Below, one piece after another: positions 1 through 61,022 of a DNA stretch of 64,000 nt. Made by a program: the position numbers and the translations under genes. The stretch comes from Limisphaerales bacterium (GTDB lineage Bacteria > Verrucomicrobiota > Verrucomicrobiia > Limisphaerales > AAA164-E04). Position 1 is the first letter of the stretch, and every line of letters begins with the position of its first letter. The stretch is taken from NCBI GenBank assembly GCA_965203425.1, contig OZ241891.1, forward strand, positions 1,583,127-1,647,126. The letters are read 5' to 3'. Below the pieces are notes generated by a model, which saw only the letters and a list, made by a program, of their open reading frames with translations, was not told the DNA's origin and did no database searches.

Positions 1-216
1 GGGAGCATTATTATTGGTGGAATCATTGGATCGACGTCTATTTGAACCTTGGGGATCTGCATCCTTTAACTGGCAGGCCGCTTACGGGAGTGACGCCTTA
101 CAGGGTGCATGCTTGGATTTCGCCGAGAGGCCCCGGCGAGTCGGGGGGTTATTACGTTCCCGTTCACTTTCGGCGATCATCGAGTTCCGAATGGGAGACG
201 CTTGGGAATTACTAAG

Positions 217-1099: not shown

Positions 1100-1656
1100 G
1101 TTGTGGGATTGTTCTATTCTTTCCATTGATTGGGCAGGCTTTGCCGGCCTGAGGAACGGGAAGGAGCGGTCGAACAAAAAGGCGGTCTCTTTGCGCCGTT
1201 GGTTTGCGTTCTGCTTGGCTGGAGTAGGCGTGGCTGAACACCACTGCGCTTGGCTTTGTTCGAGGGAGACAAAGAGAGAAGAAAGCGCCGAGACAATTGG
1301 GGTTGGCTTTGGTTTTGGGGTGGTTGGATGGTTGAGGGTGTTCTGCGGGGATTGCTATGTTGTGAAGGGAATGATGCGGTGAAGGGATTTCTGTTGCTGG
1401 TGGTTGTTCATGCAAGAGAAGGGAAAGAGATTGAAAGGTTATGGTAGTTAGTGGATTGGTGTTGGTCGAGTGGCACAGGGCAGGCTTTTATATGGGGAAG
1501 CATTTTATGAATTGTGTTGGTGTTGGTTGTATGCGTGTGGTTGGCATTTTTTGGGGAGAGATTGCAGATTACGGGATTGGCAAAAATTGCGGAAGCGTGT
1601 TGCTGTTGCGGAAAGTTGGCGTTTCGTCCATCCTGAAGTGGAGCGGATTGTGTCTT

Positions 1657-4389: not shown

Positions 4390-4739
4390 CTACAAATCAC
4401 GAAACAAAAAACCACTCTTCTCAACTCTCTTGGAAACAAGATCGAGAAAAAGCAATCTCCGCCATTTACCGACTACAAATCACCCGTTGTGAATCACAAA
4501 CCACAACCCGCTGTCCCACAAATCACAAACATCAAACCACAAAGCACCGGCCGCTTGGTTTGCCCACACAGCAACTAGCCGGCTATAAATCACCAGCCGT
4601 GTCTCCTCGCCAATCGCTAACTGTTGAAGACGAGCAAATCTACAAAGCCTCAACTACAAAGCTGTGGTGCTTTGTCGTTTTTATCGCTCGCCACAAACAC
4701 CAAAAAATCCGCAACACCAAACCAAGTCTACAAAGTGAC
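4390..4739. repeat. cluster of at least 7 direct copies of a CTA(C/T)AAA(T/G)C(AC) motif
   Basis: CTACAAATCAC at 4390 and 4473, CCACAAATCAC at 4516, CTATAAATCAC at 4583, CTACAAAGC at 4640 and 4654, CTACAAAGTGAC at 4728, plus a GAATCAC half-site at 4491. Spacing is irregular. Confidence 0.6.
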
Positions 4740-5608
4740 GGCTTGGGCTTGCCGTTTCTTATGAAAATGGCGGCGGAAGAGGACAAAACCCAAAGCGAAT
4801 AAATCAAACACAAATGCGTATTCTTTGAGTTCGAGGATGATTCTGCTGTGGACGACAATCCGCTCCAAGCCAACGCTGTTGGCCGCTAGGAAGGATCCGT
4901 AAGCCTCTGCTCTTTGATTAGGAGAGACCTAATAAGGCCCCAGAATTATTGTCGCTTTGCGTATGAAAGTCGCCGATGGATTTGTTGATCCAGCTCGTTC
5001 CCACCCAAGAAGAAGGCGGATTGATGGAATAAAACAAACGGCTGAAGAAGCGAATTCCCAAGGGCATCGTATGGATTATCCTAGTCCATCAAAAAACGCT
5101 CAATAGTCGGCTGTTAGCGCTGACGATGGCAATCATCGGCGCGTTGAGACACGAGCGGCAAAGTTGATGTTGGCGTTGGTTCTGCCTCTGCCCAGAATTC
5201 TCTTTCTTGCCGAATCGATGTCTTTAGGATTAGAGCTCGCCAATCAGAGAGAATGAGGAAAGTTCGCATCCTTAGACTTGTTGGCGTTGTCAATGCGTCC
5301 GTTATTGAAAGAGTTCATAAATGCCCAAGTGTCTCATCTAGGGGAATGATTGGAGATTGCGGAGGTTGGAATGCTTTGGAGGCCATTTTGAGTGGCCGCG
5401 GTGGTGAAAGAAGCACTGAACATCCAGAGAGTCTGGCTGGCCTTGTTTTGGCTATGGGAGAGACAATACACAACTGAGATTGGCTTGGTTGGATGAGAAC
5501 AGGAGAAGAAAGTGCCAACACAACAAACACAGCTAAAAAAGACTTCCGGCCGATGCTTGTTGCTTTCGTTTTGACGCAAACAAGGGAATGCTCTTCCTCA
5601 TGTTTCAT
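4728..5608 (-). pseudogene. decayed paralog of the PEP-CTERM protein family found at 39390 and 57936
   Basis: The N-terminus from ORF 5315..5623 is MKHEEEHS...FLAVFVVLALSSPVLIQPSQSQL (compare ...LLSLSSIEQSQAQL in the intact paralogs). After several stops and frame changes, the last frame ends ILELKEYAFVFDLFALGFVLFRRHF...* (compare VPEPEEYALVFGLFALAFVIFRR). At least 4 frame disruptions were seen on hand translation. Confidence 0.5.
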
Positions 5609-6543
5609 CTGAACTAGTTTCAAAATCTAAGAGACTGCGGATGCGAACCACTCCACGATGGAATCCACAAAGGCGATTTATGTTTTGGAGGAACGCTGAT
5701 TCGTCTGTCGTCCAGCGATGCTTGGGAATGCGTTCTGGCTTGGTGGCTGTCTCTGGCCGGATGCCTCGTCCATTCTCAAAATGGAAAAAGGGAAGAGGAA
5801 AGCAAGTTTTTTAGAAACGACCAAGCACGCCAAGAAGCGCGTCATCCCATCTTGCCGTTGTGGGAGGAAGTTTTGGTGGTTCGTGTTTTGTTGGGTTAGT
5901 AGTCAGTGCGGAAAGTGTGTTTTGTGGAGGAAGAGAATTTTGAATGAGGAACGGCGCATGGGAAGGGAGGGCAAAACTGCAAAGGGTGCGAAGATAGGGT
6001 TTTTAGTTTTGGTGATTGGGAATGCTTGGCTACGAACGTGCTGGTTTCTGGCTGTTGAGAAGTGAGGAAGTTTGTTGGTTTAGGTATTGGAGTTTTAGGA
6101 TGTGGATGAGAGGGGGAAAGGGAGAAGTGAATGGGGGGATGTGAAAGGGCAAATCACTGGGCGATGACTTTACAACAGGGCGGGGGACTTTGCTGTTTTT
6201 GCATTGCAAGCTGCTAAATGCTAATTATGGGTTGTATGGTGGTTGGTTTGGTGGGAGTCTGTAGAGAGAGTGGTTGGTTTTGTAAATCTGTTGGTTGTGT
6301 TGTCTTTGCTAAGGGGGAGAGGTTTTCTCGATGTTTGTTGGATGGGGTGGTTGCGGGGTTTGCGGGTTGTTCATTTTTTGGGGGATGGTTTTGGCGGTGG
6401 AGGGGATTTTTCGCGGGTTTTCTCTTTTTGTTTGGAAGGGGTTGTTGGGATTTGTTTCAGTTTTTTTGGGGGGGTTCTCGTTTTTGGTGTCTCTCTGTTT
6501 GTGGAAACGTGCGCCGGTTGTTTGTTGATGATTTTCCGGCAGT

Positions 6544-8316: not shown

Positions 8317-8858
8317 TACTGGGGAATTTGAAAAGTTTCTGATTGGCTAAATCTGATGCGGCGAGGTGAGTCGTTCCCATCGGCGCCGACGGCAATCTCG
8401 TTTGAATTCATTTGCAAGAGGCGGAGGTTGGCGATAACGACGTCGCCGAGGTCGACGGCTTTGAAGGCGCCGTTCACTTGCAGGAAGGCTTTTCGTTTTC
8501 CCGAACCCTGTTGGTAAATGCCTTGGAATTCGATTTTAATCTTCCGGGTTGGAGAGGCGGGTTTTGGAGCGGGCGAAACGGCCAGCGCAAAGTGGCGTGT
8601 AAAGAAGGGGGAGGCTTCGGGGTTTTGTTTTAGGAGCTCGGCCGGGGTGTTGACGAACTTCGGCAGTGTTGGGGCGTCGAGGTTTGTCTCTTCTGATAGC
8701 GTTGTTTTGTTTGGGATGCCGGCGCCGATATTCTGGACGGCGGCAAAGGAGTCTCGGATGGCCGCAATGGAATTCTGGATGACCGCCGCCCAGATGATTG
8801 TCAACAGACTCAGGGAGAAAATTGTGGTCAGTGTGTTTTGAGACATTTGCGCAGGCAT
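8316..8858 (-). CDS. PilP/GspC-HR-like small membrane-anchored pilus-assembly protein (hypothetical)
   Basis: Internal ATG of ORF 8316..8978. It has an N-terminal TM (TLTTIFSLSLLTIIWAAVI) and a C-terminal beta-rich module (IEFQGIYQQGSGKRKAFLQVNGAFKAVDLGDVVIANLRLLQMNSNEIAV), as in PilP. It sits between the PilO-like gene and the ATPase. Confidence 0.45.
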   Translation of the reverse strand: MPAQMSQNTLTTIFSLSLLTIIWAAVIQNSIAAIRDSFAAVQNIGAGIPNKTTLSEETNLDAPTLPKFVNTPAELLKQNPEASPFFTRHFALAVSPAPKPASPTRKIKIEFQGIYQQGSGKRKAFLQVNGAFKAVDLGDVVIANLRLLQMNSNEIAVGADGNDSPRRIRFSQSETFQIPQ

Positions 8859-8871
8859 ATAAATGGATTCG

Positions 8872-9771
8872 CTAGTTTTCTTGAGGTTCGGCGGTTTGCC
8901 GTTCGACGCTGGCCGGTTGTCGGTTGTCCTTCGTTTCGGCGGTTTTCTGTCTGGAAAGCGGAGGGATAAAACCCACAATTTTCATCCAAACGGAAACGTG
9001 TGCTGGTTTTTCGGGCGAGTTTTTTTGGATCAGGATTTGATCGACATACAAACTTGGTTTGTGGGGCAGGTAATCGATATTCAGATCTTTTTGGATTTCT
9101 TCGGCGCGGAGCGGGAGCATGAGTAGCAAGCGGAACAAAGAGCTGGAATCACAAGCGAATTGAATCTCGCTAATGACGGGAATGAGCGGCGGAGGGAGGG
9201 CTGCGTTGGCTGACGGAGTTCTTTGGCGTTGTACGGAAAGTTTGGAGATTGATTCGACGTCGGCGTAGATCATTGATTGCAGGAGGTGTTGCGTCAATGA
9301 GAGTTCGATCCAGAGGTAGTTGGGATCGGATAAGTCGCTGTGATAGGCGGGAAAGCCTTCAAACACGGAGGGAGGAATTCTGGATTGCCGGGTTTGGGCG
9401 AGTTTGTCGAGAGATTCGATGACTTCTTGTCGGTGGTTTTCGTAATCGACGAGTTGAAATTCAAGGCTTTTGTTTTTGTCTTGGTAAAAACTGTCGATTT
9501 CGATGCGGGAGAGCAGTGTTTGTTTGACGCTTTCCATATTGGGCGCCAATTGTTTGAGGCTTTGAGAGATGAGGTTGTAGTCGATTCGATCCGGCGCTTG
9601 TTTCTTGCGGTGGATTGTTTCGATCCGGCTCCACGTCTGGCGCAGTAGGGATTCTTTTTCTTTAGTTCGCACATTCAATGGGCGGTAAACAAAGAGGAAA
9701 TAGGCTAGGATCAAGCAGGAAATTGCCCAGCATCCCCGGTTGGATTGAGCCCATCGAATGATTGCGCGCAT
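8872..9771 (-). CDS. PilO-like bitopic protein (hypothetical)
   Basis: 299 aa with an N-terminal TM (CWAISCLILAYFLFVY) followed by a predicted coiled coil. The call rests mainly on operon position. Confidence 0.4.
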   Translation of the reverse strand: MRAIIRWAQSNRGCWAISCLILAYFLFVYRPLNVRTKEKESLLRQTWSRIETIHRKKQAPDRIDYNLISQSLKQLAPNMESVKQTLLSRIEIDSFYQDKNKSLEFQLVDYENHRQEVIESLDKLAQTRQSRIPPSVFEGFPAYHSDLSDPNYLWIELSLTQHLLQSMIYADVESISKLSVQRQRTPSANAALPPPLIPVISEIQFACDSSSLFRLLLMLPLRAEEIQKDLNIDYLPHKPSLYVDQILIQKNSPEKPAHVSVWMKIVGFIPPLSRQKTAETKDNRQPASVERQTAEPQEN

Positions 9772-9805
9772 TGTTTCTTCCTGTTTCTAGCCGCTCTTTT
9801 TTGAA

Positions 9806-11680
9806 TCAAGGAGTTTCCTTTAAGGAATCGCTTTGGGGATGGCGATCGCTGGGCAACGGGCTTGTTTTGGGACGGATTCCGGATTCTTGTCGATGGTCGG
9901 TTCCTCTTCGGTTTTCTTTGAATTTTTCCGCCTCGGCCGTCTTCCGGTTGGAATGAGCCGTTGGCGAGTCGGGGTTCAAGTGGAGATTGCGGTCGAAGTA
10001 GTTTCGGCGCAGTTCAAGCGAAAGCGCTGCGTGCCGTTCGCCGGGAAAGAGAATGTTCGTTTGGGCTAGCGGGCGGCGGAGGTCTTCGGCCAAAGTGTCG
10101 ACGTGCCGATAGATTTTGTTTTCGTTCAATCGGTTGACGAGGGAGAGCAACTTGGCTCTCATTGTTTCGCCTGAGTGGCGGAAGCTGAATTCGGCGACGA
10201 ATCCGGGTTTGCCGGCGAAGGGATTGGCGGGGGCAAGTTCGGGCGGCGCTTCCATTTTGTTGGAAGCGGTTGGGCTCGACGATTGAGAGTAATAGCTGTC
10301 GAAGTCGGCTAGAAGCACCAGCCAGTAAGCGGGGTCTTGGGCAACGAATTGCAGAGCGGCAAAGGTTTCGATCAATTCGGCGGTTTCTTGTTGAAGGCGG
10401 AGAATGGGGCGAACTTGCTCGTATTGCGCGGCAGATTGGGAAAGGGTTTTTTCTGTTTCCTGCATCTCTGCGATTACGAATTCGGCGCGCTGGATGTGCT
10501 TGTCGCTCATTCGGAACAAAACGGCGTTTTGCCAAGTTGCCAAGAGGAGAAGGAAAATTGTGGCGGCAGCGGCGGCGGCCGTCCAGCCTCGAAGACGGTT
10601 CCAGAAGAATTTCTGGTCTCTTCGTTGGCGGCAGGCTTGCGGAAGGAGCGAAATTTGGAGTTTTGCGAGGCCAAAGGCGGCGCGCGCAACGCCGAGCGCG
10701 GCGGAGAATTCTGAAGGCGCGCGGCGCTGTTTTGTTGATTTTCGGTTTTTGGCTTTTGGTTCTCCGCCGCTTTTTGATCGATGTTCTTCTTCGGGCAGGA
10801 TCACCGTTGCCTCTGTCCTTTTCCGAAGAAATGCCGCCGCCGGCTCAATCAATCCTTTTTCTCCCAAGAGAAGCAACCGATCCCGACGGGTTAATGGAAT
10901 CGTTTGCTGGGAGGCGCGAGGAACGGACGAGGGGAGGAGACGTTCTAGCCAACTTTCCAGCGCGTCCGCAGAGGGAGAAGGGTCGGCGGAGAATTCTGGT
11001 TGTTCTGACGGAAAACCGACAAGGGGAGAGGAAAAACTGGCGGCGAATTGGGGACGTCCGTCGCGGATTTGCAAAAGAGATGTGTGGCGCCGGCCGACGT
11101 CGACTGCCCAAACCGCGCCATCGGAATGTGTCAGGCTTTCAAAAGCACTCCAAAGTCCTTGAGCGGCGCTGGTCACGTCGTCCACGTCGTCAAAGTCCAA
11201 GCCGAGTGTTTGCAACCGTTGTTGGACGGACGGTTCTCGGCAATAAGTCAGCCACCATAGTCCGCCTCCGTTTTCTCGCTCGCCGTGTTCTTCGGGCATC
11301 GAGGATTTGGCAAGCGGCTGATGATCGAATACTAACTCGACGTCTTCAATTTTTTGGAAGCGCGCCGATTCGCCGGCGATAAATTCTTCAATGCTCTGCG
11401 TTTGGAGGGAGATTTGTTGGGAAACGGTTTCAGATTGCGGGAGGATCAGGTAAATGCGAATGGGATCGTATTGGGATCGCAGGTGTTTGACGGTTTCGGG
11501 GACGATGTCTTTGGCCGGCGCCAAGTGGTTGGGAATGGTGATGTGTTCTCGCACTTGAACCCGACTCAAGACGCGTTCGGCAATCAGGATGAGCGTTGCG
11601 GTTTCTCCCGGATCCAAAATCATCACCCGTTCCAGTGTCCAAAAGGAACAGCGGGCGAGTTTGGCAAGCTGGGCAAACAT
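9806..11680 (-). CDS. PilM-like / PilN-like fusion protein (hypothetical)
   Basis: Start moved to ATG 11680 (MFAQLAKL...), 6 nt downstream of the secretin stop. There is a cytoplasmic N-terminal half, then a basic linker, a single TM (WTAAAAAATIFLLLLATW) and a coiled-coil/periplasmic part like PilN. Confidence 0.5.
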   Translation of the reverse strand: MFAQLAKLARCSFWTLERVMILDPGETATLILIAERVLSRVQVREHITIPNHLAPAKDIVPETVKHLRSQYDPIRIYLILPQSETVSQQISLQTQSIEEFIAGESARFQKIEDVELVFDHQPLAKSSMPEEHGERENGGGLWWLTYCREPSVQQRLQTLGLDFDDVDDVTSAAQGLWSAFESLTHSDGAVWAVDVGRRHTSLLQIRDGRPQFAASFSSPLVGFPSEQPEFSADPSPSADALESWLERLLPSSVPRASQQTIPLTRRDRLLLLGEKGLIEPAAAFLRKRTEATVILPEEEHRSKSGGEPKAKNRKSTKQRRAPSEFSAALGVARAAFGLAKLQISLLPQACRQRRDQKFFWNRLRGWTAAAAAATIFLLLLATWQNAVLFRMSDKHIQRAEFVIAEMQETEKTLSQSAAQYEQVRPILRLQQETAELIETFAALQFVAQDPAYWLVLLADFDSYYSQSSSPTASNKMEAPPELAPANPFAGKPGFVAEFSFRHSGETMRAKLLSLVNRLNENKIYRHVDTLAEDLRRPLAQTNILFPGERHAALSLELRRNYFDRNLHLNPDSPTAHSNRKTAEAEKFKENRRGTDHRQESGIRPKTSPLPSDRHPQSDSLKETP

Positions 11681-11685
11681 GGGAA

Positions 11686-13869
11686 TCACGGTTTTGGCGC
11701 GGATGAAATGGCCGGTTCTCCTTCGTTCCAATCGCCGTTGGCGCCGAATTCGATGAATTCTCCGGTTTCAGAGAGCAATGTGGCGGTCACAAAAATCAAA
11801 AGATAGCGGGGTTTGTCCACTTCGGTGCGCCTTCTAAACGCCGCGCCAATAACGGGGATTTTGCCCAGAATGGGAACCGATTCGACGAAGGTGGATTGTT
11901 CCCGCTCCAGCACGCCGCCCATGACGACGGTTTGGCCGGACTGAACGATCACTCGAGTTTTTAGGGATTGAGTGCGTGATTCCGGCAACTTAATCTCAAT
12001 CGAGTTTCCGGTGGAATCCCTCACGGTGGCGAAGTCAACCAACTTCACTTCTTGATTCACTTCGGGATAAAGAGCCAAGTAAATCGTTCTTCCATCCCCG
12101 CCGATGCTGGCCATCACTTCAAGCGACACTCCCGAAGTAATTTCTTTAGGAGCGCCCTTCGGCACCAGCGTGGAAGCGATGTTGCGTTCGTTGACGGTCT
12201 GGGTGACGGTGTATTCTTCATAGTAGTTTTGGATTTTGCCGTCGGCAATCCGGGCGGGAAGGTTGTTGACCACCGTGATGCGGGGGGCGCTCAAGGTTCG
12301 GGTTTCTCCCTCTTGTTCCAAAGCCGTCAAGGTAAGGCTGAGGTTGGTTCGGTTTAGAATATTCCCGAAGGTTTCCTGCAGATTTTGTCCCACATTGACG
12401 TTTTCGGGGACAATATCAAGAAAGTCCGTGGGCGTCTGTCCTTCTTGCGGCGGACGGCCGGTTTCCCAAAGGGCGCCCAATTGCAGAAAAGCGGCTTCGG
12501 AGACGGTGATGAACCGGGCTTCGATCAACACTTGCTGGAGGGGGCGGTCGTATTCTTCGATGATTCGCTCCAGCACCGCCAACTGCTCGCGGGTGCCGGT
12601 AGCCAGAATAATGTTGCGCTCATAATCAATTTCGTATTCCGAGCCTTGAAAGAACTTTTGAATCGCCCGCTCAATGGAAGGCGTGCTGGGAACGCCGTCG
12701 CGGACAAAGGTTTGCGCTTTTTCGACCGTGACGGTTGTCACCGTGCCGTCTTTCGCTTTGGTTTCAGTTCGTTGGACTTCGTCGGCGCCAAAGATGGCGG
12801 GCAGGATGAATCCCTTTCGCAAGCGATAAATGCGGGTGTCTTCGATGGTTTTCTGTTCGTCTTGACCGTCCACGATCCAAATCAAGTCATCGCCGACTTG
12901 GAACTGAAGATCGAAGTTTCTGGAAACATAATCCAAAAACTCGCCTAATCGCACTTTTTCAAAGTTGAGACTCAATTTTTCTTGAAAGGCTTTGAGCGAG
13001 CGGTCGGCGACAAAATTAATGCTTTCGCTTTCGCCAATCTGAAAAATGACGGACTCCAAAGTGACGTCGTCCAATTTGACGGAAAATTCCTTGTCCAACT
13101 CTCTGGCCATTCGCCCGGCTTGGCTTTTGAAGTCGAACATCGGCGCGGAACGGGAAATCGTCTGGTTGTAAGTGCGGGGAACGTAGGGTCTGGATTCGAT
13201 GTCCAACACTGCGTCGCGGAGGTCTTTGCGCGGCGTCAACCCGCGGTCCGCCTGCTCGGTAAGCAAGCTTTCCACCGTGGGGCTGAAGACGGAGTTTTGG
13301 GAGTCAATCTTGCGAATGGTGTCTTCTAATGCTCGGCTTCTCAGAATTTCTTGTTGCTTTCCCACCCAATCGTGAACGCGGGCGACTACTGGGTCATTAG
13401 CGTTCTTGTCGCGCAATTGATTGGCGGCGATCATGGCCTCTTCCCATTGATTGTTTTTGGCCAGCTCAAAAATCTGCTTAATTTCCTCGTCGTAGCGGAT
13501 GCTGTATTGAGTCGCCTCCCTCTCCAAAGAAGAATGAGGTTGGATTGGTTTGCTTGCGGGCGGCCTTGTCGCAGAGGGATCCTTTGGGCTTTGGCAACCG
13601 ACAATGCACAACGTTGCCGCAAAAAAGGGGAGACCCTTTCCGCCGGGAAGTCGAAAGAGAGCCATCCAATCGAAAGTCCATCGGCAGATGCATTCAGTCT
13701 TTTTTAAAAGGCCGGAGTTTTTCATTCTTTGCCGAAAATCTTTGGCAGTTTTCTCGACGAAGAAAAAGGCCGAACGCGGGGAAGTTTTCCATTCTCGGCT
13801 CGTCAACCTCTTTTTGCCCCAACCGTTCCTGGAGTTGAGTTGTGCCATAGCGTTTTTGTGATGCCTCAA
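11686..13869 (-). CDS. secretin (PilQ/GspD family outer-membrane channel)
   Basis: The C-terminal secretin domain reads LIEARFITVSEAAFLQLG ... GQTVVMGGVLEREQSTFVESVPILGKIPVIGAAFRRRTEVDKPRYLLIFVTATLL. A lipobox-like LCIVGC lies near the N-terminus, so the true start is probably internal (MKNSG... or MALFRL...). Confidence 0.9.
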   Translation of the reverse strand: MRHHKNAMAQLNSRNGWGKKRLTSREWKTSPRSAFFFVEKTAKDFRQRMKNSGLLKKTECICRWTFDWMALFRLPGGKGLPFFAATLCIVGCQSPKDPSATRPPASKPIQPHSSLEREATQYSIRYDEEIKQIFELAKNNQWEEAMIAANQLRDKNANDPVVARVHDWVGKQQEILRSRALEDTIRKIDSQNSVFSPTVESLLTEQADRGLTPRKDLRDAVLDIESRPYVPRTYNQTISRSAPMFDFKSQAGRMARELDKEFSVKLDDVTLESVIFQIGESESINFVADRSLKAFQEKLSLNFEKVRLGEFLDYVSRNFDLQFQVGDDLIWIVDGQDEQKTIEDTRIYRLRKGFILPAIFGADEVQRTETKAKDGTVTTVTVEKAQTFVRDGVPSTPSIERAIQKFFQGSEYEIDYERNIILATGTREQLAVLERIIEEYDRPLQQVLIEARFITVSEAAFLQLGALWETGRPPQEGQTPTDFLDIVPENVNVGQNLQETFGNILNRTNLSLTLTALEQEGETRTLSAPRITVVNNLPARIADGKIQNYYEEYTVTQTVNERNIASTLVPKGAPKEITSGVSLEVMASIGGDGRTIYLALYPEVNQEVKLVDFATVRDSTGNSIEIKLPESRTQSLKTRVIVQSGQTVVMGGVLEREQSTFVESVPILGKIPVIGAAFRRRTEVDKPRYLLIFVTATLLSETGEFIEFGANGDWNEGEPAISSAPKP

Positions 13870-39389: not shown

Positions 39390-40264
39390 ATGAAAATACC
39401 TCCCCCCCCCCCCCCCCCCCCGCAGCCGCCAAACGGTTGACCGTCGCCTTGCTTTTGACGGCAACTTTGCTTTCTTTGTCGTCAATTGAACAAAGCCAAG
39501 CGCAGCTGTACATCGACATCTATCCCAGCCAAGACAGCTCCAAAACCCATAGCCTCTGGGTTTTGAGCGGCGAATCCCAAGCCTCCATGTTTTTGAATGA
39601 AGCCGACAGCTACATCCGACACGGCGCCCTCGCCAGCGCACACCAAGCCAACGAACGCGACACCTACGAGCTCGAAGACCTCCTCTACGCCGGCCCCAGA
39701 GGCATCGGCAACTCTCCCCTTGCCTTTGGCTCTCTGTTTTCCTTGACCGCTCTTTCCCCTTCTTCCCTCGACTATGCGGGAGTCACCAACTTTTGGGCGG
39801 CCACCAACACCGTCTCCTCGCTTTCATCCGCGGCGGGAACGCCCACTCTTTCCTTCTCCAACCGAGTCGTCAACGGCGCGGTCACCAACCGAAGCATCAG
39901 CCATATGGCTATGTATGATCAGCCGGGGGGCAATAACTGGCTCGGTGTGCGCGTTGGCGGCGGCAGCAATCTCACCTACGGCACTAATCGTCCAACTGTC
40001 AACTGGGTCGGCGCCGGCTTGATCAACAAACCCATTGGCGACTTTCGCTCCCGCGATCCCTACATCCGCAACAAAGCCAACATCATCGGCTATTTTGGCG
40101 ACAACACCCTTGGCGGTGGACTGCGCATTCGCGTGCATTCGGCGACGGTTCCGGAACCCGAAGAATATGCGCTTGTGTTTGGCTTGTTTGCTCTCGCCTT
40201 TGTGATTTTCCGCCGCTGCTGCCCCAATTTTTTCTGCAGAAAAAGCGGAGTGAAAATGGATTGA
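39390..40264 (+). CDS. PEP-CTERM sorting-domain surface protein, paralog 1 (ATG 39390 out of frame with the body at C20)
   Basis: The body frame (ORF 39263..40264) encodes ...PPPPPPAAAKRLTVALLLTATLLSLSSIEQSQAQL... and ends VPEPEEYALVFGLFALAFVIFRR (PEP-CTERM). ATG-AAA-ATA-CCT-(C)n at 39390 would be in frame with 21 or 18 C. The upstream ATG 39359 is in frame at 20 C. Confidence 0.7.
39402..39421 (+). repeat. homopolymeric C20 tract inside the 5' end of a PEP-CTERM gene
   Basis: Counted directly: t + 9 C, 10 C, 1 C, then g at 39422. Confidence 0.95.
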
Positions 40265-44100: not shown

Positions 44101-44952
44101 ATGAGCCAAGGGAATCCTTACAAAGATTTTACAGACAGACTTCGGATCCTCGCCAGAAAACATCCTGATCTAATCACCACAACGTTAAGCAACATTTTCA
44201 CAATGCGCCTAATCGGAAACAAAACGCATGGAGACCTAGCAGAAATCGCCATGGCCGAATTCATCAATCAATACATGTACGATTTCCGCTCCGTGCATGT
44301 CGGCAAAGACTTGTACAGAGCAAAGTCCAAAGAGGAAGACATCAAAATCATCAACGAAATGACCCAAGTTGCATTTCCCGTCAGCCTGAAGGCCTATGGC
44401 GATGGACCTCTTCAACTTTCAACAGACAAAAACTTCAGAATGTTTCCACGGTTGGAACAGGAAGGCGCCGATATTGTAGGCAGAGAAAACATCGCGCTAT
44501 TGCTTGCCGATTCCGCTTTCTCTGATTTCCGAAGAATAAACGTCTTGCCCTTGATTTATGACGAGAAAGCTCAACGTTGCAACATTCTCGTTTTCGATTA
44601 TCATCGAGCAGAAACTAAAACGGTTAGAATTTCAAGAGAAACAGGCAATCGAGGAAGAAAGCATCCCGTCTATCGATTTTATGATTCCAGCAATGCCTAT
44701 ATTTGCGAAGTGCGCTACGGAAACGCGGCCGCCAACGCTCTCCAACGCGGACTATGGACTCACACGAAGAACGGTCTCAACTATTTTGACAGCATTACCA
44801 ACGGTTGGATTAACTACTCCCATAACCATGTTCTAGTTAAACTCTTCTCTCATGCGCTTGTTTCTTCTGAAATCGGCCATAGGAATGCTCTGGAAAAAAT
44901 CAAAGAAGACATTGTTCGACTCAAACAAAGATCCTATATTCCGCCAATCTAA
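44101..44952 (+). CDS. candidate type II restriction endonuclease (cognate to the downstream methyltransferase)
   Basis: 283 aa, no family recognised. Possible PD-(D/E)xK elements (HGDLAEIAMAEF ... EEDIKIINE ... VSLKAYG). Its stop overlaps the methyltransferase start (TAATG). Both genes are visibly AT-richer than their neighbours. Confidence 0.5.
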   Translation: MSQGNPYKDFTDRLRILARKHPDLITTTLSNIFTMRLIGNKTHGDLAEIAMAEFINQYMYDFRSVHVGKDLYRAKSKEEDIKIINEMTQVAFPVSLKAYGDGPLQLSTDKNFRMFPRLEQEGADIVGRENIALLLADSAFSDFRRINVLPLIYDEKAQRCNILVFDYHRAETKTVRISRETGNRGRKHPVYRFYDSSNAYICEVRYGNAAANALQRGLWTHTKNGLNYFDSITNGWINYSHNHVLVKLFSHALVSSEIGHRNALEKIKEDIVRLKQRSYIPPI

Positions 44953-46094
44953 TGCAAACACAGTCTTTCCTCTTAGATAATGGGATTCCTGATATTCCTT
45001 CGACCGAAGGCATAAAATATACAGGATCTAAGCGCAAGCTGCTCCCCTATATTCTTGTGTTGTCAAAGAAGACAGGCGCGCAAAGTGTTTTTGACGGCTT
45101 TGCCGGATCTACACGAGTCAGCCAAGCGTTTGCTCGCTCGGGATATGGAGTAGTATCCAACGACTTGGCCGAGTATTCCCGTGTTTTGGGCACATGCTAT
45201 CTAAAAAACAGAAAGCATCCGAAAGAATATCAACCGCTCATTGATCATCTCAATTCGCTACCTCCAGAAGACGGCTGGTTTACCAAGCATTACGGCGGCG
45301 AGGTCAATCCCGGCAACAAAGGCAACGCAATTCAAATCGACGGAACCAAGAAACCTTGGCAGAAGAAAAACACACGAAAACTCGACGCTATCCGGAGAGA
45401 AATTGACGCCTTGAAACTAGATAAGATTGCAAAAAGCGTGGCTTTGACAAGTCTGATTTTAGCGCTGGATCAAGTCGACAGCGCACTTGGCCACTTTGCT
45501 TCTTACTTGAAGGATTGGTCTCCCCGATCCTTCAAAGACTTAAAGTTGCAAGTTCCCCGATTGTGGAAGAACCAAACCACAAACACCGTGTTGCGCGGCG
45601 ATGTTTTTCAAGCGCTTTCTAGCATCAAAACCGACTTAGCCTATTATGATCCGCCTTATGGATCCAACAATGATAAAATGCCGCCTTCCAGAGTTCGATA
45701 CGCCTCCTATTATCATTTGTGGACTACTGTTTGTAAAAATGATTACCCGTCCTTGTTTGGCAAAGCCTTCCGTCGGCAAGACTCGTCCGACGAAGTGGCG
45801 TCTTCAATATTTGAGGAATTTCGCAGAAATGACTCTGGGAGATTTATTGCAGCAGAAGCTATTGAACGACTATTGAAAGAAACGCCATGCCCGTGGATTT
45901 TGCTTTCTTATAGTTCGGGAGGCAGAGCGGCGGCTGGGGAACTCAATGAAGTGATAGAAAATTGTGGCAAACTTGTGGAGATTGTGGAGGTGGACTATAA
46001 AAAGAATGTAATGTCATCTATGCGATGGACCCACCAATGGGCGCGAGAACTTGAGGAACCCAACAAAGAATTCCTGTTTCTAATAAGGAAATAG
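44952..46094 (+). CDS. Dam-like (D12 class, alpha-group) N6-adenine DNA methyltransferase
   Basis: IKYTGSKRKLLPYI, SVFDGFAGSTRVS (FxGxG, AdoMet binding) and YYDPPY (DPPY catalytic motif), with motif I before motif IV. Confidence 0.85.
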   Translation: MQTQSFLLDNGIPDIPSTEGIKYTGSKRKLLPYILVLSKKTGAQSVFDGFAGSTRVSQAFARSGYGVVSNDLAEYSRVLGTCYLKNRKHPKEYQPLIDHLNSLPPEDGWFTKHYGGEVNPGNKGNAIQIDGTKKPWQKKNTRKLDAIRREIDALKLDKIAKSVALTSLILALDQVDSALGHFASYLKDWSPRSFKDLKLQVPRLWKNQTTNTVLRGDVFQALSSIKTDLAYYDPPYGSNNDKMPPSRVRYASYYHLWTTVCKNDYPSLFGKAFRRQDSSDEVASSIFEEFRRNDSGRFIAAEAIERLLKETPCPWILLSYSSGGRAAAGELNEVIENCGKLVEIVEVDYKKNVMSSMRWTHQWARELEEPNKEFLFLIRK

Positions 46095-46115: not shown

Positions 46116-47369
46116 TCAAGTGAGCGGGTCTTCGGAAACAGAGCGGAGGACTTCTTCCAGGGGAATTTCGCCGGATGCGGCGCGGGTAATGCCGCTTTCC
46201 CAAAGTGTTTTCATGCCCTGTTCTTGGGCAATGGCTTGGAGTTTCCTTGTGCGGAACTTTTCCATTACGGCGTCGCGGATTGGCTCGTTGACGGCCAGCA
46301 TTTCCGTTAGGGCGGTGCGTCCGGCAAAGCCGGTTTCGTTGCAGGTGTCGCAACCGCCGCCTCGACGCCAAGTAGCATCGTCCAGCAGTGTTTTGGAAAC
46401 TCGCTTGAGCAACGCCGGGTCAGGCGGATAAGGCATGGCGCAGAGAGGACAGTTTTTGCGGACGAGTCGCAGTCCAAGAATGCCGATGATGCTGGAGGCG
46501 AGGAGGAAGGGCTCGATGCCCATGTTGATCATGCGGGCGAAGACTCCGGCAGTGCTGCCTGAGTGAATGGTGCTTATGACGAGGTGGCCGGTAAGGCCGG
46601 CTTGGACAGCAATGGCGGCGGTTTCGGGATCGCGAATCTCTCCGATCATGATGACTTGAGGGTCTTGGCGCATGAGGGAGCGAAGCGCGAGAGGATAGGT
46701 GAAGTCCCTCGCGATGTTGATTTGGGACTGGCTGATTTGCGAGAGGTTAAACTCCACCGGGTCTTCTACGGTGCTGATGCTGATGCTGGATCCGTGCTGT
46801 TCTACGAGGTGGCAAAGCGCGGCATAAATGGCGGTGGTTTTGCCGGAACCGGTTGGGCCGGTGAGCAAGAGCATTCCCGTTGGGCGGCTGAGCAGGTCTT
46901 TAAGAACGGTCGAAGTGTCAACCTCGAAACCCAGTTGTTCGATGTCGAAAGCGCGGCTTTTAGGATCAAAGATGCGAATAACAATCTTTTCTCCGCGAGC
47001 GAACGAATGGCCAACGCCTCCGCGAATCACCGGAAAAAACGAAAGCCGAAGCTCCACGCCTCCCTCGCCCGTAGTCGCCCGAGCATGCCCTTCCTGCGGA
47101 CGATCGGTTTCGTAGTGGACCAGATTCGCCATGACTTTCAAACGCGCCGAGATTTTCTCGGCCAGTTCCAGAGGCAAATGCTCAAACTCCCTGAGAACGC
47201 CGTTGAGACGGAAACGGATTATGAGACTTTCCTCCCACGGCTCGACGTGAATGTCGCTCGAATTCGCGTCAATAGCGTCTAAAATAACGCATTCGACTAT
47301 TTGAGCGATATCGATCTCTTCAAGGCTCGGACTTTGTTCGACAATCTGGCGCGTTCGATTCACAATCAA
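46116..47369 (-). CDS. GspE/PilB/PilT-superfamily secretion ATPase, short form without N-terminal domain (orphan)
   Basis: 417 aa. LLLTGPTGSGKTTAIYAAL, DPQVIMIGEIRD, TGHLVISTIHSG, CPLC...CDTC. Confidence 0.85.
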   Translation of the reverse strand: MIVNRTRQIVEQSPSLEEIDIAQIVECVILDAIDANSSDIHVEPWEESLIIRFRLNGVLREFEHLPLELAEKISARLKVMANLVHYETDRPQEGHARATTGEGGVELRLSFFPVIRGGVGHSFARGEKIVIRIFDPKSRAFDIEQLGFEVDTSTVLKDLLSRPTGMLLLTGPTGSGKTTAIYAALCHLVEQHGSSISISTVEDPVEFNLSQISQSQINIARDFTYPLALRSLMRQDPQVIMIGEIRDPETAAIAVQAGLTGHLVISTIHSGSTAGVFARMINMGIEPFLLASSIIGILGLRLVRKNCPLCAMPYPPDPALLKRVSKTLLDDATWRRGGGCDTCNETGFAGRTALTEMLAVNEPIRDAVMEKFRTRKLQAIAQEQGMKTLWESGITRAASGEIPLEEVLRSVSEDPLT

Positions 47370-56374: not shown

Positions 56375-56476
56375 TCCGCCGACCAAACACGCAAGCCGCC
56401 TAGCACCAAAAAACCCATTCTTTCTCGTTGCTTTCTCAGCAAAACTGCGCTATCTTTTGGAAAAAATTCAGTCAAT

Positions 56477-57724
56477 ATGATCCGTCTCATTTTTATCGCT
56501 TCCGCCTTTGCCCTTGCCGGCGCTCCGCAACCTTTGCCCGCCGAAGAAGCGCATTGGCCGGGTTGGTTGGGACCTGACCGCAACGGTTGGGCAAAGAACT
56601 TTCAACCGCCCAAGCAATGGCCAAAGCAATTGAGAAAAGTCTGGCAAACCAAAGTGGGCGGCGGCTACGGCTCTCCACTCGTCGCCGGCGGCCTCGTTTT
56701 TCAACACGCCCGTCAAGGCGAAGAAGAAACGCTTTGGTGCTTGGACTTGGAAACAAGCCACCCCAAGTGGCGCCAAGGCCACGCCGTGCCTTTCAAAATA
56801 GGGCTTGGAGGCGAACTTCACGGCAAGGGGCCAAAATCTTCCCCGGCATTGGCGAACGGTCGGATTTTTACGATGAGCATTACGGGAGTCCTTTCCGCTT
56901 CCGAAACCGCTTCAGGCAAACCTCTCTGGCGGCGCGATTACAGCCGCCGCTTCGACAAGCCTCATCCCTACTGGGGCGCCGCAACCTCTCCGCTGGTGGA
57001 CGGCGAACGAATCATCATCCACTTTGGCGGCGACGAAGAAGGCACCTTGGTCGCGTTGGACGCCAAAACCGGCCGGGAAATCTGGAGTCAAGGCCACGAC
57101 GGCGCCTCTTACTCCTCCCCAATTGTTGCCGAGATTCAAGGCGTCCGCCAAATTATCGAATGGAACCACAACAATCTTGTCGGCATAGAAAACACAACCG
57201 GCCGCCGTCTTTGGCAGTATTCCTTTCCTCATGTGGGCAACAACCAAAACATGCCCACACCCGCAGTTCACAACGGGCAAGTGATTGTCGGCGGCGAAAA
57301 CCGCGGCATCCGCTGCGTCAAACCAACACGGCACGGCAACAGCTGGACGGTCAAAGAACAATGGCGGCAAAAAGAAGTGGCGCTGGATATGAGCACCGCC
57401 GTGATGAACGACGGCCGGCTCTATGGATTTTCTCATTACGGAAGAGGCCGAATCTTCTGCCTCGACGCCAAAAGCGGTGACATCCTCTGGCAAGGCCCCT
57501 TCCGAACCGGAGAGCATGCGTCCTTTCTGGCAATCCCCGACCACATTCTCGCTCTTTTGGATTCCGGCGAACTCCAGGTCTTGTCCGCCAATGGCAAACG
57601 CTACGAAAAAATCGCTTCTTACATTGTGTCCGAAAATCCCACTTGGGCGCCGCCAGCGCTTCTCAAAAACGGAATTCTAGTGAAAGACACGGACACCCTC
57701 ACCCTTTGGTCGCTGGCCAATTAA
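56477..57724 (+). CDS. PQQ-like beta-propeller repeat protein (BamB-like fold)
   Basis: Signal peptide, HWPGWLGPDRNGW start typical of this family, and repeated ...G..lW... propeller blades. Confidence 0.75.
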   Translation: MIRLIFIASAFALAGAPQPLPAEEAHWPGWLGPDRNGWAKNFQPPKQWPKQLRKVWQTKVGGGYGSPLVAGGLVFQHARQGEEETLWCLDLETSHPKWRQGHAVPFKIGLGGELHGKGPKSSPALANGRIFTMSITGVLSASETASGKPLWRRDYSRRFDKPHPYWGAATSPLVDGERIIIHFGGDEEGTLVALDAKTGREIWSQGHDGASYSSPIVAEIQGVRQIIEWNHNNLVGIENTTGRRLWQYSFPHVGNNQNMPTPAVHNGQVIVGGENRGIRCVKPTRHGNSWTVKEQWRQKEVALDMSTAVMNDGRLYGFSHYGRGRIFCLDAKSGDILWQGPFRTGEHASFLAIPDHILALLDSGELQVLSANGKRYEKIASYIVSENPTWAPPALLKNGILVKDTDTLTLWSLAN

Positions 57725-57834
57725 AACTGCATTTACCCAAGCGCAAAGCATTCAAAAGAAAAGCCAAGCCCAAGAATCCAAGAAAATCCTCACGAAAACC
57801 TCAGAAAAAATGCGGAGAATTTTTCTTTTTTTGT

Positions 57835-57863
57835 TTGACAAACGTTGGCAACAAGGCTTTAAT
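57835..57863 (+). promoter_or_regulatory. sigma70-like promoter of PEP-CTERM paralog 2
   Basis: TTGACA (57835) - 17 nt - TTTAAT (57858). The upstream T-tract and -35 are identical to those of paralog 1. Confidence 0.4.
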
Positions 57864-57935
57864 GAATGCGTAGTTTGTTTTACAAAATAGAATAACGGCA
57901 GAAGTATTTTGGACTAAATCAACTTATCGACCATC

Positions 57936-58656
57936 ATGAAAATCCCCCCCCCCCCCCCCCGCATCCCTAAACCGTAAGCCATTGTCCCTTGGTGTCTTCG
58001 TAACAACGGCCTTGCTTTCCTTTGCCTCGATTGAGCAAAGCCAAGCGCAACTCCTCCTTACCGTCAATCCTCTCCAAACCGACACCAACTCAACCGTCTG
58101 GACTTTCTCCGGCAGCTCCACCGCCTCTCGATCCGGCAACATCACCACAACGCAATCGGTTTTAATAAATTTCGAGACGGTAGGAAGCATAATTCCCTAC
58201 ACCTCCGGCGGCGCTTCGATCTTCACGGTGGGAAGTAGTGCGGTCGATCATTCTTTAGCAGCCAATTCTGCCAGCCTGCCTCAGATCACCACCCCCTCCG
58301 GCGCCCGAACCATCAGCCATATTCATCTGGAAAAAGACGAAAGCGTGGACATCGTGGGCATTCGAGTCGCAGCAAGTTCGCTCAGCTATTCCACAAACGA
58401 CCTCGTCTCGTGGAGCGGGCAAGGCACCTTGTCCCACTCCATCACCAACTTTGCCGTCAACGCTGCCGGTGAGTATTATTACAACTACATTTTCGGCCCT
58501 TATTATGCGGCCGCCGGCACTTCGGGCGTGCCGAGTTCCGGCGGCCTTCGAGTGGTAGTTTCCAGCTCGCCCACGCATTTGGTTCCCGAACCACAAGAAT
58601 ACGCTCTCATCTTCGGCTTATTTGCGCTGGGTTTTGTCTTCTTTCATCGCCGGTGA
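57936..58656 (+). CDS. PEP-CTERM sorting-domain surface protein, paralog 2 (ATG 57936 out of frame with the body at C17)
   Basis: The body frame is open from 57940 and reads K-S-PPPPP-ASLNRKPLSLGVFVTTALLSFASIEQSQAQL..., ending VPEPQEYALIFGLFALGFVFFHRR. The only ATG (57936, ATG-AAA-ATC-(C)n) is in frame with 16 or 19 C. The ORF track could only offer TTG 57982, which removes the basic n-region. Confidence 0.7.
57944..57960 (+). repeat. homopolymeric C17 tract inside the 5' end of the second PEP-CTERM gene
   Basis: Counted directly: aat + 7 C, 10 C, then g at 57961. Confidence 0.95.
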
Positions 58657-58848
58657 ATGCAAAAGAAACGACGGGCAGTGTAATTAGCGGTAGCTGAGTC
58701 AGAATTTAGGACTTTTTGAGTTTTGAGAGGACGACGGGTTTATTGTGGCCCCGGTTCGTCTCTGCCAGCGTTTCGGACAAGCAATCGGCAAAGGCGCACC
58801 CCGCGAATCGCTTTGGCGCCGGCCTTGACACAAGCCAAAGATTTCATC

Positions 58849-60864
58849 TTAAAAGGGAGCGTTGCGGGAAAATTCGCCGTGGCAAAGTTCCCAAGACTCG
58901 TAGCATTCTTCGGGCAATTCCCTCAAAAATTGAGACGGTTCCAGTCGGCCGTCTTGTTGTCCCGGCGCAAAACGCATTTTGGGAAAACTCAAATACAGCT
59001 CATTTTTGGCGCGAGTGGTAGCCACGTAGAACAAGCGACGTTCCTCTTCTTCCCCGGTTTCCTCATCCCTGAGAGAACGCGAAGAAGGGAACAAACCTTG
59101 GCAGAGCATGATTATGAAGACGACGCTAAATTCAAGTCCCTTCGCTTGATGAATCGTCGTCAAGCGAAGGCGGTCGTCTTTGTTGGTTTTGGCGGCGCGA
59201 TCTTCGGTTTCGAGGTTGGTTTCTAGCGCTAACTGCGACAGGAAGTCTTCTAGGTTCTCAAACGCTTGGGCGTATTGCGCTAGCTGTTGCAAGTCTTCCA
59301 AACGGGATCGGTAATTTTCGAACTGATTTTGCAAATATTCTTCGTAGCCAGCGTCTAGAATTAACTCAATCATTTTGCCGGGATCGCGGCGCATGGACTC
59401 ATCCTCCAGTTGCGCCATTGTGGCCGTCCACTGCGCCCAATCCGCCTTCGCTTTTTTGGGAACGGCTTGAGCGCAATTCGCCAGACGCTCCGCAACGCTC
59501 AATTTCGGCGACTGCCTCAAAAAGAGGCTCCATACTTTGCTCGCTATTTTGCCGCCGATTCCGGGCAACATTTTTGCCAAGCGATGAAAGGCGATTTCAT
59601 CGTGCGGGTTGGCAACCAACCTCAAATAAGCCGCCGCGTCCTTGACGTGCGCCTGCTCAAAGAAACGAATGCCACTCGTGATCACAAAGGGAATTTCCTG
59701 CTTGATCAATTCCAACTGCAACTCCATCGCGTGCCGGTGAGAGCGATAAAGAACCGCCATATCGCTTAACTTTTCGCCTGCTTCCCGCAATTCCAAAACT
59801 CGATTCGCCACAAAACCCGCTTGTTCGTCGGCGTCTTCGCAAGTCGCAAGCACAGGTTTCTGTCCCGAATCTCGCACGGCTTGGAGTTTCTTCTGGAATT
59901 GGTTGCCGTTGGCGGCGATGGCTTCGTTGGCTAAACGCAAAATCTCCGGCGCGCTCCGATAGTTCGTCTCGATTTTGAACATTTTTGCGTTCGGATAACG
60001 TTTTGAAAATTCGAGAATGTTTCTAAAATCCGCTCCCCGCCACGAATAAATACTCTGATCCTCGTCGCCTACCGCCATCACGTTCCCATGCTCTTCGGCC
60101 AACCGATCAATCAAGCGCCCTTGCAGTTTGTTGGTGTCTTGATACTCGTCCACAAGAAGATAACGAAATTGCCGTTGATACTGCCGCCGCACGTCTTCGT
60201 CCTTGTCAAACAACTCCAGCCAAAGCGCGAGCAAATCATCAAAGTCTACCAGTTCGCCCTTAACTTTTCGGGCGCGATAGCGTTCGCGAATGGATTCCAA
60301 CTGCGCGGTCAGATGCTCAAAATAACTGAATTGATCTTGAATCATCGACGCAAGCGGAATCATCCGATTCACTGCCTGCGAAAAAATGTTCCCCACCACC
60401 TCCGCCTTGGGAAACTGAGCGGACTTGACGCTCTTTTCCTCTTCAATACACGACTTTAAGAGACCCTTCGCATCTTCGCGATCCATGATGGTAAAGCCCC
60501 GCGAGTATCCAACTGCCGGCGCGTGGCGGCGCAAAATGCGGTTGCCAATCGAATGAAACGTCCCTCCCCAAAGAGACGGCAGTTCTCGCCCCAACAACGA
60601 AGCCACCCTCTCCATCATCTCTTGGGCGGCTTTGTTTGTGAAAGTCAGCAACAAAATTTGTCGAGCCGCAATCCCATGTTCAATAAGATAGGCCACCCGA
60701 TAAGTCAGCGTCCGCGTCTTTCCCGAACCAGCGCCCGCTATTACTAATGCCGGACCGGGCGGACAAGTCACTGCCTCCCACTGCTGGGGGTTTAATTCTT
60801 TCTCGTAATCAATCCGAAAATCCACTTCCAATCGACGGCCGGATTCAAGCATACACGCCTTCAA
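58849..60864 (-). CDS. UvrD/PcrA/Rep-family ATP-dependent DNA helicase
   Basis: 671 aa. LVIAGAGSGKTRTLTYRVAYLI (motif I), LLVDEYQDTN (motif II), TIHQAKGLEF, LFYVATTRAK. Confidence 0.9.
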   Translation of the reverse strand: MKACMLESGRRLEVDFRIDYEKELNPQQWEAVTCPPGPALVIAGAGSGKTRTLTYRVAYLIEHGIAARQILLLTFTNKAAQEMMERVASLLGRELPSLWGGTFHSIGNRILRRHAPAVGYSRGFTIMDREDAKGLLKSCIEEEKSVKSAQFPKAEVVGNIFSQAVNRMIPLASMIQDQFSYFEHLTAQLESIRERYRARKVKGELVDFDDLLALWLELFDKDEDVRRQYQRQFRYLLVDEYQDTNKLQGRLIDRLAEEHGNVMAVGDEDQSIYSWRGADFRNILEFSKRYPNAKMFKIETNYRSAPEILRLANEAIAANGNQFQKKLQAVRDSGQKPVLATCEDADEQAGFVANRVLELREAGEKLSDMAVLYRSHRHAMELQLELIKQEIPFVITSGIRFFEQAHVKDAAAYLRLVANPHDEIAFHRLAKMLPGIGGKIASKVWSLFLRQSPKLSVAERLANCAQAVPKKAKADWAQWTATMAQLEDESMRRDPGKMIELILDAGYEEYLQNQFENYRSRLEDLQQLAQYAQAFENLEDFLSQLALETNLETEDRAAKTNKDDRLRLTTIHQAKGLEFSVVFIIMLCQGLFPSSRSLRDEETGEEEERRLFYVATTRAKNELYLSFPKMRFAPGQQDGRLEPSQFLRELPEECYESWELCHGEFSRNAPF

Positions 60865-60950: not shown

Positions 60951-61022
<72 letters not shown>

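Follow-up and report, generated by a model that had tools for sequence, protein, structure and literature searches.

A 17-base poly-C tract as a probable slipped-strand switch in a large family of predicted PEP-CTERM-like surface-protein genes of Limisphaerales

On/off switching of genes by unstable repeats is textbook knowledge for a handful of pathogens that are adapted to a host and have small genomes, but to our knowledge hardly any case has been described from uncultured bacteria of the PVC (Planctomycetes-Verrucomicrobia-Chlamydiae) superphylum. Here we describe a gene of a Limisphaerales bacterium, located at 57936-58656 on the plus strand of a 64-kb stretch of contig OZ241891.1 (positions 1,583,127 to 1,647,126; hereafter the window), in which the start codon is followed almost directly by a run of 17 C, and we compare this gene (the window gene) and its paralogs with the switching systems described so far. 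By analogy, the closest known logic is that of the opa genes of Neisseria. As in opa, a multicopy family appears to be scattered over the genome, each copy with its own promoter, and a repeat with a unit not divisible by three in the leader-peptide coding region sets the reading frame; independent switching, an off state of most copies and mosaics of paralogs generated by recombination would likewise be common to both. In contrast, the repeat unit of opa is the pentamer CTCTT, whereas homopolymers or 7- and 8-mers are used here, with four switch types in a single family. The copy number is 3-12 per genome for opa but at least 30-50 here, the opa product is an 8-stranded outer-membrane barrel whereas a beta-sandwich with a PEP-CTERM tail is predicted here, and the opa host is a human-restricted pathogen whereas the present one belongs to an uncultured lineage of Verrucomicrobiota, of which Limisphaerales is an order. 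Membership in the Opa family itself was rejected, as no Pfam homology was detected and a soluble beta-sandwich with a C-terminal anchor is predicted; the likeness is in mechanism only.

Three other groups of switches are also comparable. In Campylobacter jejuni and Helicobacter pylori, genes are turned on and off by frameshift in long G/C homopolymers that lie close to the 5' end of the reading frame and vary in length by strain. Those tracts are, however, found in many unrelated genes, mostly for glycosyltransferases and restriction-modification, and are usually 8-13 bases long, whereas here one family of paralogs is marked by tracts of up to 27 bases. The vlhA (pMGA) genes of Mycoplasma gallisepticum resemble the present family in that dozens of surface-protein paralogs each carry an upstream simple repeat and one or few are expressed, but the vlhA repeat is a GAA trinucleotide upstream of the promoter, acting on transcription, and the products are lipoproteins, whereas mainly translational frameshift is expected here. 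The poly-C of Bordetella pertussis fim2/fim3 and the poly-G/C of Neisseria meningitidis porA/opc have counterparts in four paralogs (loci L026, L060, L062 and L066) with poly-G in the presumptive spacer between -35 and -10, but the spacer of the window gene is fixed at 17 nt. The mechanism is thus familiar; unfamiliar are the scale, the phylum, the type of cargo and the use of four interchangeable switches in one family.

By its anatomy, the window gene can be assigned to the PEP-CTERM class, i.e. to the proteins of the PEP-CTERM/exosortase sorting system (TIGR02595; Haft et al. 2006, cited in PMC3048395). Verrucomicrobia carry many PEP-CTERM proteins, including 21 in Akkermansia muciniphila, and the only related remark in the Akkermansia genome paper is that 17 genes contain homopolymers. 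A search of the accessible literature found no paper linking PEP-CTERM proteins or gene families of Verrucomicrobia to repeat switching.

The ATG of the window gene (57936-57938) is followed by AAAAT (57939-57943) and then by the 17 C, which occupy codons 3-8 of the open reading frame (ORF); the 5' coding region therefore contains a long repeat whose unit is not a multiple of three. Runs of about 8-9 G or C are generally regarded as unstable, and C17 is far longer. Elsewhere in the window, C runs are no longer than 6 and G runs no longer than 7, except for a C20 at 39402-39421 in a paralog, and only about 4e-6 C runs of 17 or more are expected in the window from base composition; C17 is therefore not a chance run. 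The frame starting at ATG 57936 has 13 codons (MKIPPPPPRIPKP) and ends at TAA 57975-57977. The frame of the protein body is +1 relative to this ATG and is open from the tract to TGA 58654-58656, with 231 open codons at 57961-58656 encoding ASLNRKPLSLGVFVTTALLSFASIEQSQA/QL...VPEPQEYALIFGLFALGFVFFHRR. Upstream of the tract, the body frame is closed by TGA 57937-57939, overlapping the start codon as aTGA, so that no upstream start can rescue the window gene. The first start-type codon in the body frame is TTG 57982, and its use would cost the signal peptide its basic NRK. When the tract was replaced in silico by 16 or 19 C, one continuous ORF of 239/240 amino acids was obtained. Judged from its sequence, the gene is strictly off as assembled with 17 C, giving the 13-amino-acid peptide only. 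The original prediction had claimed this arrangement, i.e. C17 after ATG-AAA-AT, a 13-codon ATG frame, an open body frame, repair by 16 or 19 C, and TTG 57982 as an alternative start at the expense of NRK, and each of these points was reproduced. The stop codon of the 13-codon ORF sits four bases ahead of the in-frame TTG, and termination-reinitiation at TTG 57982 could give a leaky product without the n-region; this arrangement of TAA and TTG (57975-57984) is not kept in paralogs.

Table 1. Features of the poly-C switch locus and of the other family copies in the window
Feature	Position in window	Strand	Basis and remarks
T-rich tract, then -35-like TTGACA (57835-57840)	57816..57840	+	Kept in 39390 paralog; near-identical at syntenic loci of two other genomes
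-10-like TTTAAT, 17 nt after TTGACA	57858..57863	+	Hexamer and spacer identical in window, L041 and L020
Conserved leader (5' untranslated region) of poly-C switch module	57864..57935	+	Identity to other leaders
Canonical ATG and 13-codon off-frame mini-ORF MKIPPPPPRIPKP*	57936..57977	+	Sequence, translation
C17 homopolymer, proposed slipped-strand switch	57944..57960	+	Sequence; 16 or 19 C give an in-frame gene
Rest of signal peptide in body frame: n-region ASLNRK, h-region, cleavage motif SQA/QL	57961..58047	+	Translation
Body cassette, 82-84% identical in nucleotides to L088, L091 and L003	58033..58670	+	Sequence comparison
Mature domain, about 178 amino acids, predicted all-beta sandwich, no known family	58048..58581	+	AF2 model
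PEP-CTERM-like sorting tail VPEPQEYALIFGLFALGFVFFHRR and stop	58582..58656	+	Motif position, family alignment
Paralog, first locus: ATGAAAATACCT, C20 (39402-39421) and body	39390..40264	+	Sequence, protein comparison
Third family copy, decayed	4730..5610	-	Frameshifts, stops, repeat lost
Orphan signal-peptide fragment VSALSSLFVSLEQSQAQ	1199..1294	-	Sequence; unrelated sequence after it

Searches for relatives of the encoded protein returned 113 homologs, all of them unnamed and lacking Pfam domains; out of 1.84 billion cluster representatives, 177 matched at E<=1e-10. In a species-representative genome collection, relatives are encoded by 160 loci confirmed by tblastn. The family is small and lineage-restricted. 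The survey of paralogs covered the best 80 of these 160 loci, all of which lie in two complete Limisphaerales chromosomes, OZ251460 (n=50) and OZ242022 (n=30), and these chromosomes therefore hold at least 50 and 30 copies, respectively. In metagenome contigs of JGI (Joint Genome Institute), a search for the exact allele with the tract length left free gave no match, and a protein-guided scan gave only unrelated PEP-CTERM tails, indicating that the family is rare in that collection.

A family-typical repeat was found at the 5' end of 72 of the 80 paralogs, with four kinds of switch. In Type A, to which the window gene belongs, a short ATGAAAAT... start is followed immediately by poly-C of 10-27. 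Type B carries poly-G of 9-24 located 45 nt past the ATG, where the signal peptide ends (...CLC-GGGGG-(Y/V)NAQAQL). Type C carries, 20-50 nt past the ATG, arrays of either 7-nt units (TCGGGCA x2-17, GCAAGCG x9, GAACTGC x9, GAACAGC x37, CACGCAT x6) or 8-nt units (CAATCGGT x5, GGCAAGCG x2-4, GACAAGCG x3); these arrays account for the odd periodic peptides (GHRASGIGHRASG...) found in public protein calls. In Type D, poly-G of 9-17 begins 0-3 nt downstream of a TTGAC(A) box and precedes an ORF that is not interrupted; this type has four clear members, the promoter-spacer loci named above; the upstream tract of L030 is ambiguous. By a generic repeat detector, 59 of the 80 5' zones (24 kb) were positive, as compared with 8 weak matches of tetranucleotide type in 240.7 kb of flanks. 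Some arrays have features of their own. The (GAACAGC)x37 of L022 (1237-1496), directly after ATGAAAATA, and the (ATCGGGC)x~16.6 of L014 (1332-1448) are far longer than a simple frame switch needs, and the leader of L029 (~1400-1440) contains a 13-nt unit cttttcgttatca three times, a repeat class not seen elsewhere in the family.

All coding-repeat units are non-multiples of three, so that every slippage event shifts the frame; in the 8-mer series, for example, 2.2 copies give the off state, 3.2 the on state and 4.2 again the off state. Among the 67 paralogs with coding repeats, 10 are in frame with the ATG and 57 out of frame, an in-frame share under the one-third expected by chance (binomial p=6e-4, duplicates not being independent). 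One protein, P0100 (L093-L097, gene starts 175-1501), carries a degenerate, interrupted G-rich repeat that does not differ between 5-6 independent samples and is in frame in each, and appears from its sequence to be a locked-on copy.

An alternative reading is decay, in which the frameshift of the window gene would be an inactivating mutation in a gene on its way to loss and the homopolymer incidental. Decay does take place in the window, where a third family copy (4730-5610, minus strand) and an orphan signal-peptide fragment (1199-1294) are found, and the window gene itself ends at a TGA about 8-10 residues short of its homologs. Real decay, however, has a different appearance. The third copy needs at least three frame changes, contains several stops, has its PEP changed to LEL, and retains only one GCATCGG unit where its relatives hold a 7-nt repeat array. 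The window gene, in contrast, has a body of 231 open codons with a ratio of nonsynonymous to synonymous substitution rates (dN/dS) of 0.26-0.30 against its closest homologs, and its sole defect lies at the repeat. In the family as a whole, 77 of the 80 bodies are open over about 230 codons even though most are out of frame with the ATG, and dN/dS is 0.26-0.55 for bodies that are off as assembled. The open bodies and these ratios indicate that the genes are maintained and not lost, and we consider decay highly improbable as an explanation of the window gene. The orphan fragment may be left over from a recombination or a deletion.

The length of the tract was then compared at orthologous sites. 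At the site of the window gene, between the BamB-like gene and uvrD, the tract is C17 in the window, C10 in L041 (OZ251460) and C14 in L020 (OZ242022), these being different species-level genomes and not strains of one population. The flanks are well conserved: between L041 and the window, identity is 87.6% over 56471-58125, including the BamB-like gene, promoter, leader and signal peptide, and 88.8% over 58831-59734 (uvrD), while L020 has a uvrD flank 91.5% identical and the same leader. At the site of the 39390 paralog, C20, C13, C17 and C9 were found in four genomes within an ADK-like/Amt/GlgB neighbourhood 87.5-93.9% identical, and C9 is the sole allele in frame with the canonical ATG. In addition, the syntenic pair L002/L092 has C20 (on) and C12 (off), L060 and L062 have G14 and G9 in the same flanking sequence, and of five poly-G pairs of paralogs with 450 nt of identical flank, four show a difference of a single G. 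In the orthogroup of the 39390 paralog, each of the three frame states is represented among the N-termini across many samples. Length differences of this kind are, at the sequence level, the comparative signature of a hypermutable tract.

A further alternative is an artefact of sequencing or assembly, with the true tract in frame (16 or 19) and stable, or the homopolymer inflated by the assembler, and the gene an ordinary constitutive one with a short poly-proline. Homopolymers of 17-20 bases are indeed hard to size, one-base differences between identical duplicates fall within the expected error, and the related complete genomes bear contig names whose style suggests long reads. A one-base miscall at the window locus is possible. 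That the tract exists is nevertheless beyond doubt: poly-C recurs at this codon position in assemblies made independently, among them scaffolds of short-read style (C9, C12, C13, C17), and the differences of 3-11 bases between orthologs are beyond any sizing error. Moreover, the members with 7- or 8-nt units, which are robust to sizing error, are likewise mostly out of frame when taken alone (3 on, 23 off). An artefact as the full explanation is thus given very little credence.

The two poly-C loci of the window were also compared with each other. The proteins of the 57936 and 39390 genes are paralogs (30% identity, E=6e-18), and both genes have the T-tract with TTGACA, a leader block, ATGAAAAT and the cleavage-region DNA ...ATTGA(A/G)CAAAGCCAAGCGCA(A/G)CT. 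The frame-restoring lengths are 18 or 21 C for the 39390 gene as compared with 16 or 19 C for the 57936 gene. The original prediction had held that promoter, start and cleavage region are common to both loci, that the tract is a conserved feature of the family, and that the two loci are offset by different amounts and change length independently; direct comparison of the loci, the presence of family-typical repeats in the 80-paralog survey of two genomes and the allele series at both sites agree with all of these. Its further claim that both genes are out of frame holds fully for the 57936 gene, but for the 39390 gene only with respect to the canonical ATG. With C20, the body of the 39390 gene lies in frame -1 and is joined to an upstream ATG at 39359, the canonical ATG being read as CAT-GAA-AAT, and the public call of this paralog (P0258, 100% identical, 301 amino acids) starts at ATG 39359. 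The same upstream-ATG configuration was found in P0265, P0268 and P0274. In the 39390 subfamily, the second start might render two of three tract-length classes productive. The proposal that the family could be sized by a genome search for the start motif followed by a C run needs revision: as the family uses four switch kinds, a search for the ATGAAAAT-poly-C pattern alone would greatly undercount it.

The protein encoded in the body frame was examined after repair of the frame. A Sec-type signal peptide was recognised by inspection, with the basic NRK, a 17-residue hydrophobic core and S-Q-A at -3 to -1, and EQSQAQL is nearly invariant in the family alignment. A model by AF2 (AlphaFold2), built with a 33-member family alignment (mean predicted local distance difference test score, pLDDT, 80.2; predicted template-modelling score, pTM, 0.74), predicts an all-beta sandwich between an N-terminal helix at residues 11-22 (signal peptide) and a C-terminal helix at residues 211-230 (tail). 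When this model was compared with PDB by Foldseek, no match was obtained below E=1e-3 (best E-value 6e-3), and the weak top matches, i.e. collagen-adhesin N2, CBM3a and adenovirus fibre heads, are generic beta-sandwiches, so that no function is assigned to this domain. Pfam and NCBIfam searches of the repaired proteins detected no family besides a marginal PEP-CTERM tail, and Pfam at E<=1 gave only a chance match to ColG_sub. The tail is laid out as VPEP-QEYALIFGLFALGFVFF-HRR at the protein end, corresponding to PEP motif, transmembrane helix and basic cluster, and the columns P, E, P, Y, A, L, A, L, F and R are invariant in the 33 members. The window gene stops at its TGA (58654-58680 region) where homologs have Arg and run on as ...RMQKKRQ..., extending about 8-10 residues further; the in-frame remnant MQKKRRAV after the TGA looks, from the sequence, like the trace of a recent nonsense change that trimmed the cytoplasmic tail.

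With respect to the region upstream of the start codon, a three-way alignment indicated that TTGACA, the 17-nt spacer and TTTAAT are kept in all three genomes and that the leader is well conserved. The leader is 88-94% identical to those of L041 and L039, whereas the protein bodies of the same genes are only about 31% identical. A scan for sigma-70 promoters gave no call at the conserved TTGACA/TTTAAT pair, whose -10 is weak, and the promoter is therefore treated here as putative. A regulatory RNA in the leader was rejected, with no Rfam match and a fold weaker than that of shuffled sequences (z=+1.7).

The separate behaviour of leader and body was observed repeatedly. At the syntenic site, the window body (58125-58831) is not homologous to the body of L041 (31% amino acid identity), whereas the switch module is conserved. 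The genes that resemble the window cassette in DNA (Table 1), L088, L091 and L003, sit at other sites and carry 7-nt repeat switches in place of poly-C. In the comparison of L002 with L092, the alignment begins exactly at the tract and the leader is replaced. In L1-like genes of the two complete genomes, the place taken by poly-C in the window, right behind ATGAAAA(A)TA, is occupied by (GAACAGC)37 or (GAACTGC)9. The breaks of homology fall at two conserved coding segments, EQSQAQL and PEP-CTERM, and the three or four cases at hand suggest that these two segments serve as recombination anchors for cassette exchange.

Taken together, we regard it as probable that C17 is a slipped-strand translational switch, off as assembled, within a large repertoire of independently switching surface-protein genes. 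According to this model, the window gene would be driven by its own promoter (T-tract, TTGACA, 17 nt, TTTAAT). In the on state, with 16 or 19 C, translation from ATG 57936 would give a preprotein of 239/240 amino acids with the n-region MKIPPPPP(P)ASLNRK, followed by a hydrophobic core, signal-peptidase cleavage after SQA, a beta-sandwich of roughly 180 amino acids and a PEP-CTERM-type tail, and the tail would be processed by exosortase for display on the cell surface or matrix. In the off state, with 17 C, ribosomes would make the 13-amino-acid peptide. Replication slippage on the homopolymer would alter its length by one or a few bases at a high rate, giving reversible on/off changes within lineages. 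Each copy of the scattered family would be controlled by one of the four interchangeable repeat switches, with most copies off at any time, and the protein bodies would be swapped between expression sites via recombination at the signal-peptide and PEP-CTERM ends. The predicted outcome is a stochastic and combinatorial cell surface.

Several points weigh against this model or limit it. Whatever the sequencing chemistry, homopolymers of 17-20 bases are prone to sizing errors; the true tract could differ from 17 by a base or two, the off state could be a miscall, and so could the one-base differences between duplicate paralogs. The ratio of 10 to 57 counts recent duplicates as independent. Promoter function of the T-tract, TTGACA and TTTAAT is suggested by their conservation, and we infer switching within a population from comparison between genomes; the reading of the tracts as contingency loci, proposed at the outset, is strongly upheld by the comparative evidence and stays provisional as to switching in a population. 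On the side of the cargo, TIGR02595 gives no match at E<=1 for the window gene, and the 39390 paralog scores 14.7 bits where the cut-off is 16. Weak matches to this model, which has only 24 positions, were obtained for 9 of the 33 family members at E<=0.1 (best 0.003). As the window gene is missed and its relatives match weakly, the tail is called PEP-CTERM-like. An exosortase gene was not found among the 30 large ORFs of the window that were scanned. Finally, the internal TTG 57982, slippage of RNA polymerase or slippage of the ribosome could make the off state leaky.

The last of these points can be extended to a different explanation, in which the DNA tract is stable and recoding, through stutter of RNA polymerase on C17 or a slip of tRNA-Pro on CCC-C, sustains constitutive low-level synthesis of the protein. 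Long homopolymers are well known to promote slippage in transcription, CCC-C is an established slippery site for +1 shifts, and recoding would also explain why members are mostly out of frame yet under purifying selection. Slippage of polymerase or ribosome cannot, however, correct 7- or 8-nt repeats of up to 37 copies or act through a poly-G beside the -35 box, and recoding is therefore not the common mechanism of the family, whereas slippage at the DNA level accounts for all four switch types. The tract length, moreover, does change in the DNA between orthologous sites. Recoding may contribute leakiness but is insufficient alone, and we judge it unlikely as the explanation of the tract.

Extending the slipped-strand model to the whole genome, we tentatively propose, with somewhat less than even confidence, that Limisphaerales possess a 'variant surface protein' system whose logic resembles that of host-restricted pathogens, in which dozens of scattered PEP-CTERM genes per genome would be controlled by four interchangeable hypermutable switches, a minority being on in each cell, and body cassettes would move between fixed sites. 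Selection may come from phages, grazers or attachment to particles and not from an immune system. Notable in the present data are a single cargo family of exosortase type with a switch on almost every copy, four repeat solutions at one gene position, and signs of cassette exchange among sites. If confirmed, slipped-strand switching would give PEP-CTERM proteins a population-level role, i.e. surface heterogeneity, and would provide ready loci for measuring bet-hedging in natural communities from long-read metagenomes. Annotators would also be warned, as public calls of these genes show systematic mis-calling, with starts truncated or wrongly extended. If the variant-surface proposal is true, surface variation driven by repeats would count as a general strategy among uncultured bacteria, beyond the pathogens in which it is classically known.

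As to the genomic setting, the family genes stand singly among housekeeping genes, including those for FeoB, adenylate-kinase-like protein, Amt, GlgB, YmdB, BamB/PQQ_2-like protein and UvrD. The window also holds PSCyt1, PSCyt2, PSD1 and DUF1501, families typical of Planctomycete and Verrucomicrobia genomes, which agrees with an origin in Limisphaerales. An ORF for a D12-class N6-adenine DNA methyltransferase is located at 44952-46094 (+), after a 283-amino-acid ORF without Pfam match, and no repeat was seen there. Parts of Type II/IV secretion or pilus systems are present at 6544-13869 (-), 46116-47369 (-) and 109-1041 (+), including two T2SSE ATPases, a secretin and a prepilin-type N-methylation protein; as far as seen, they are unrelated to the switch. 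A single tRNA gene is present in the window (60951-61022, minus strand), and it gave the only Rfam match at the gathering threshold.

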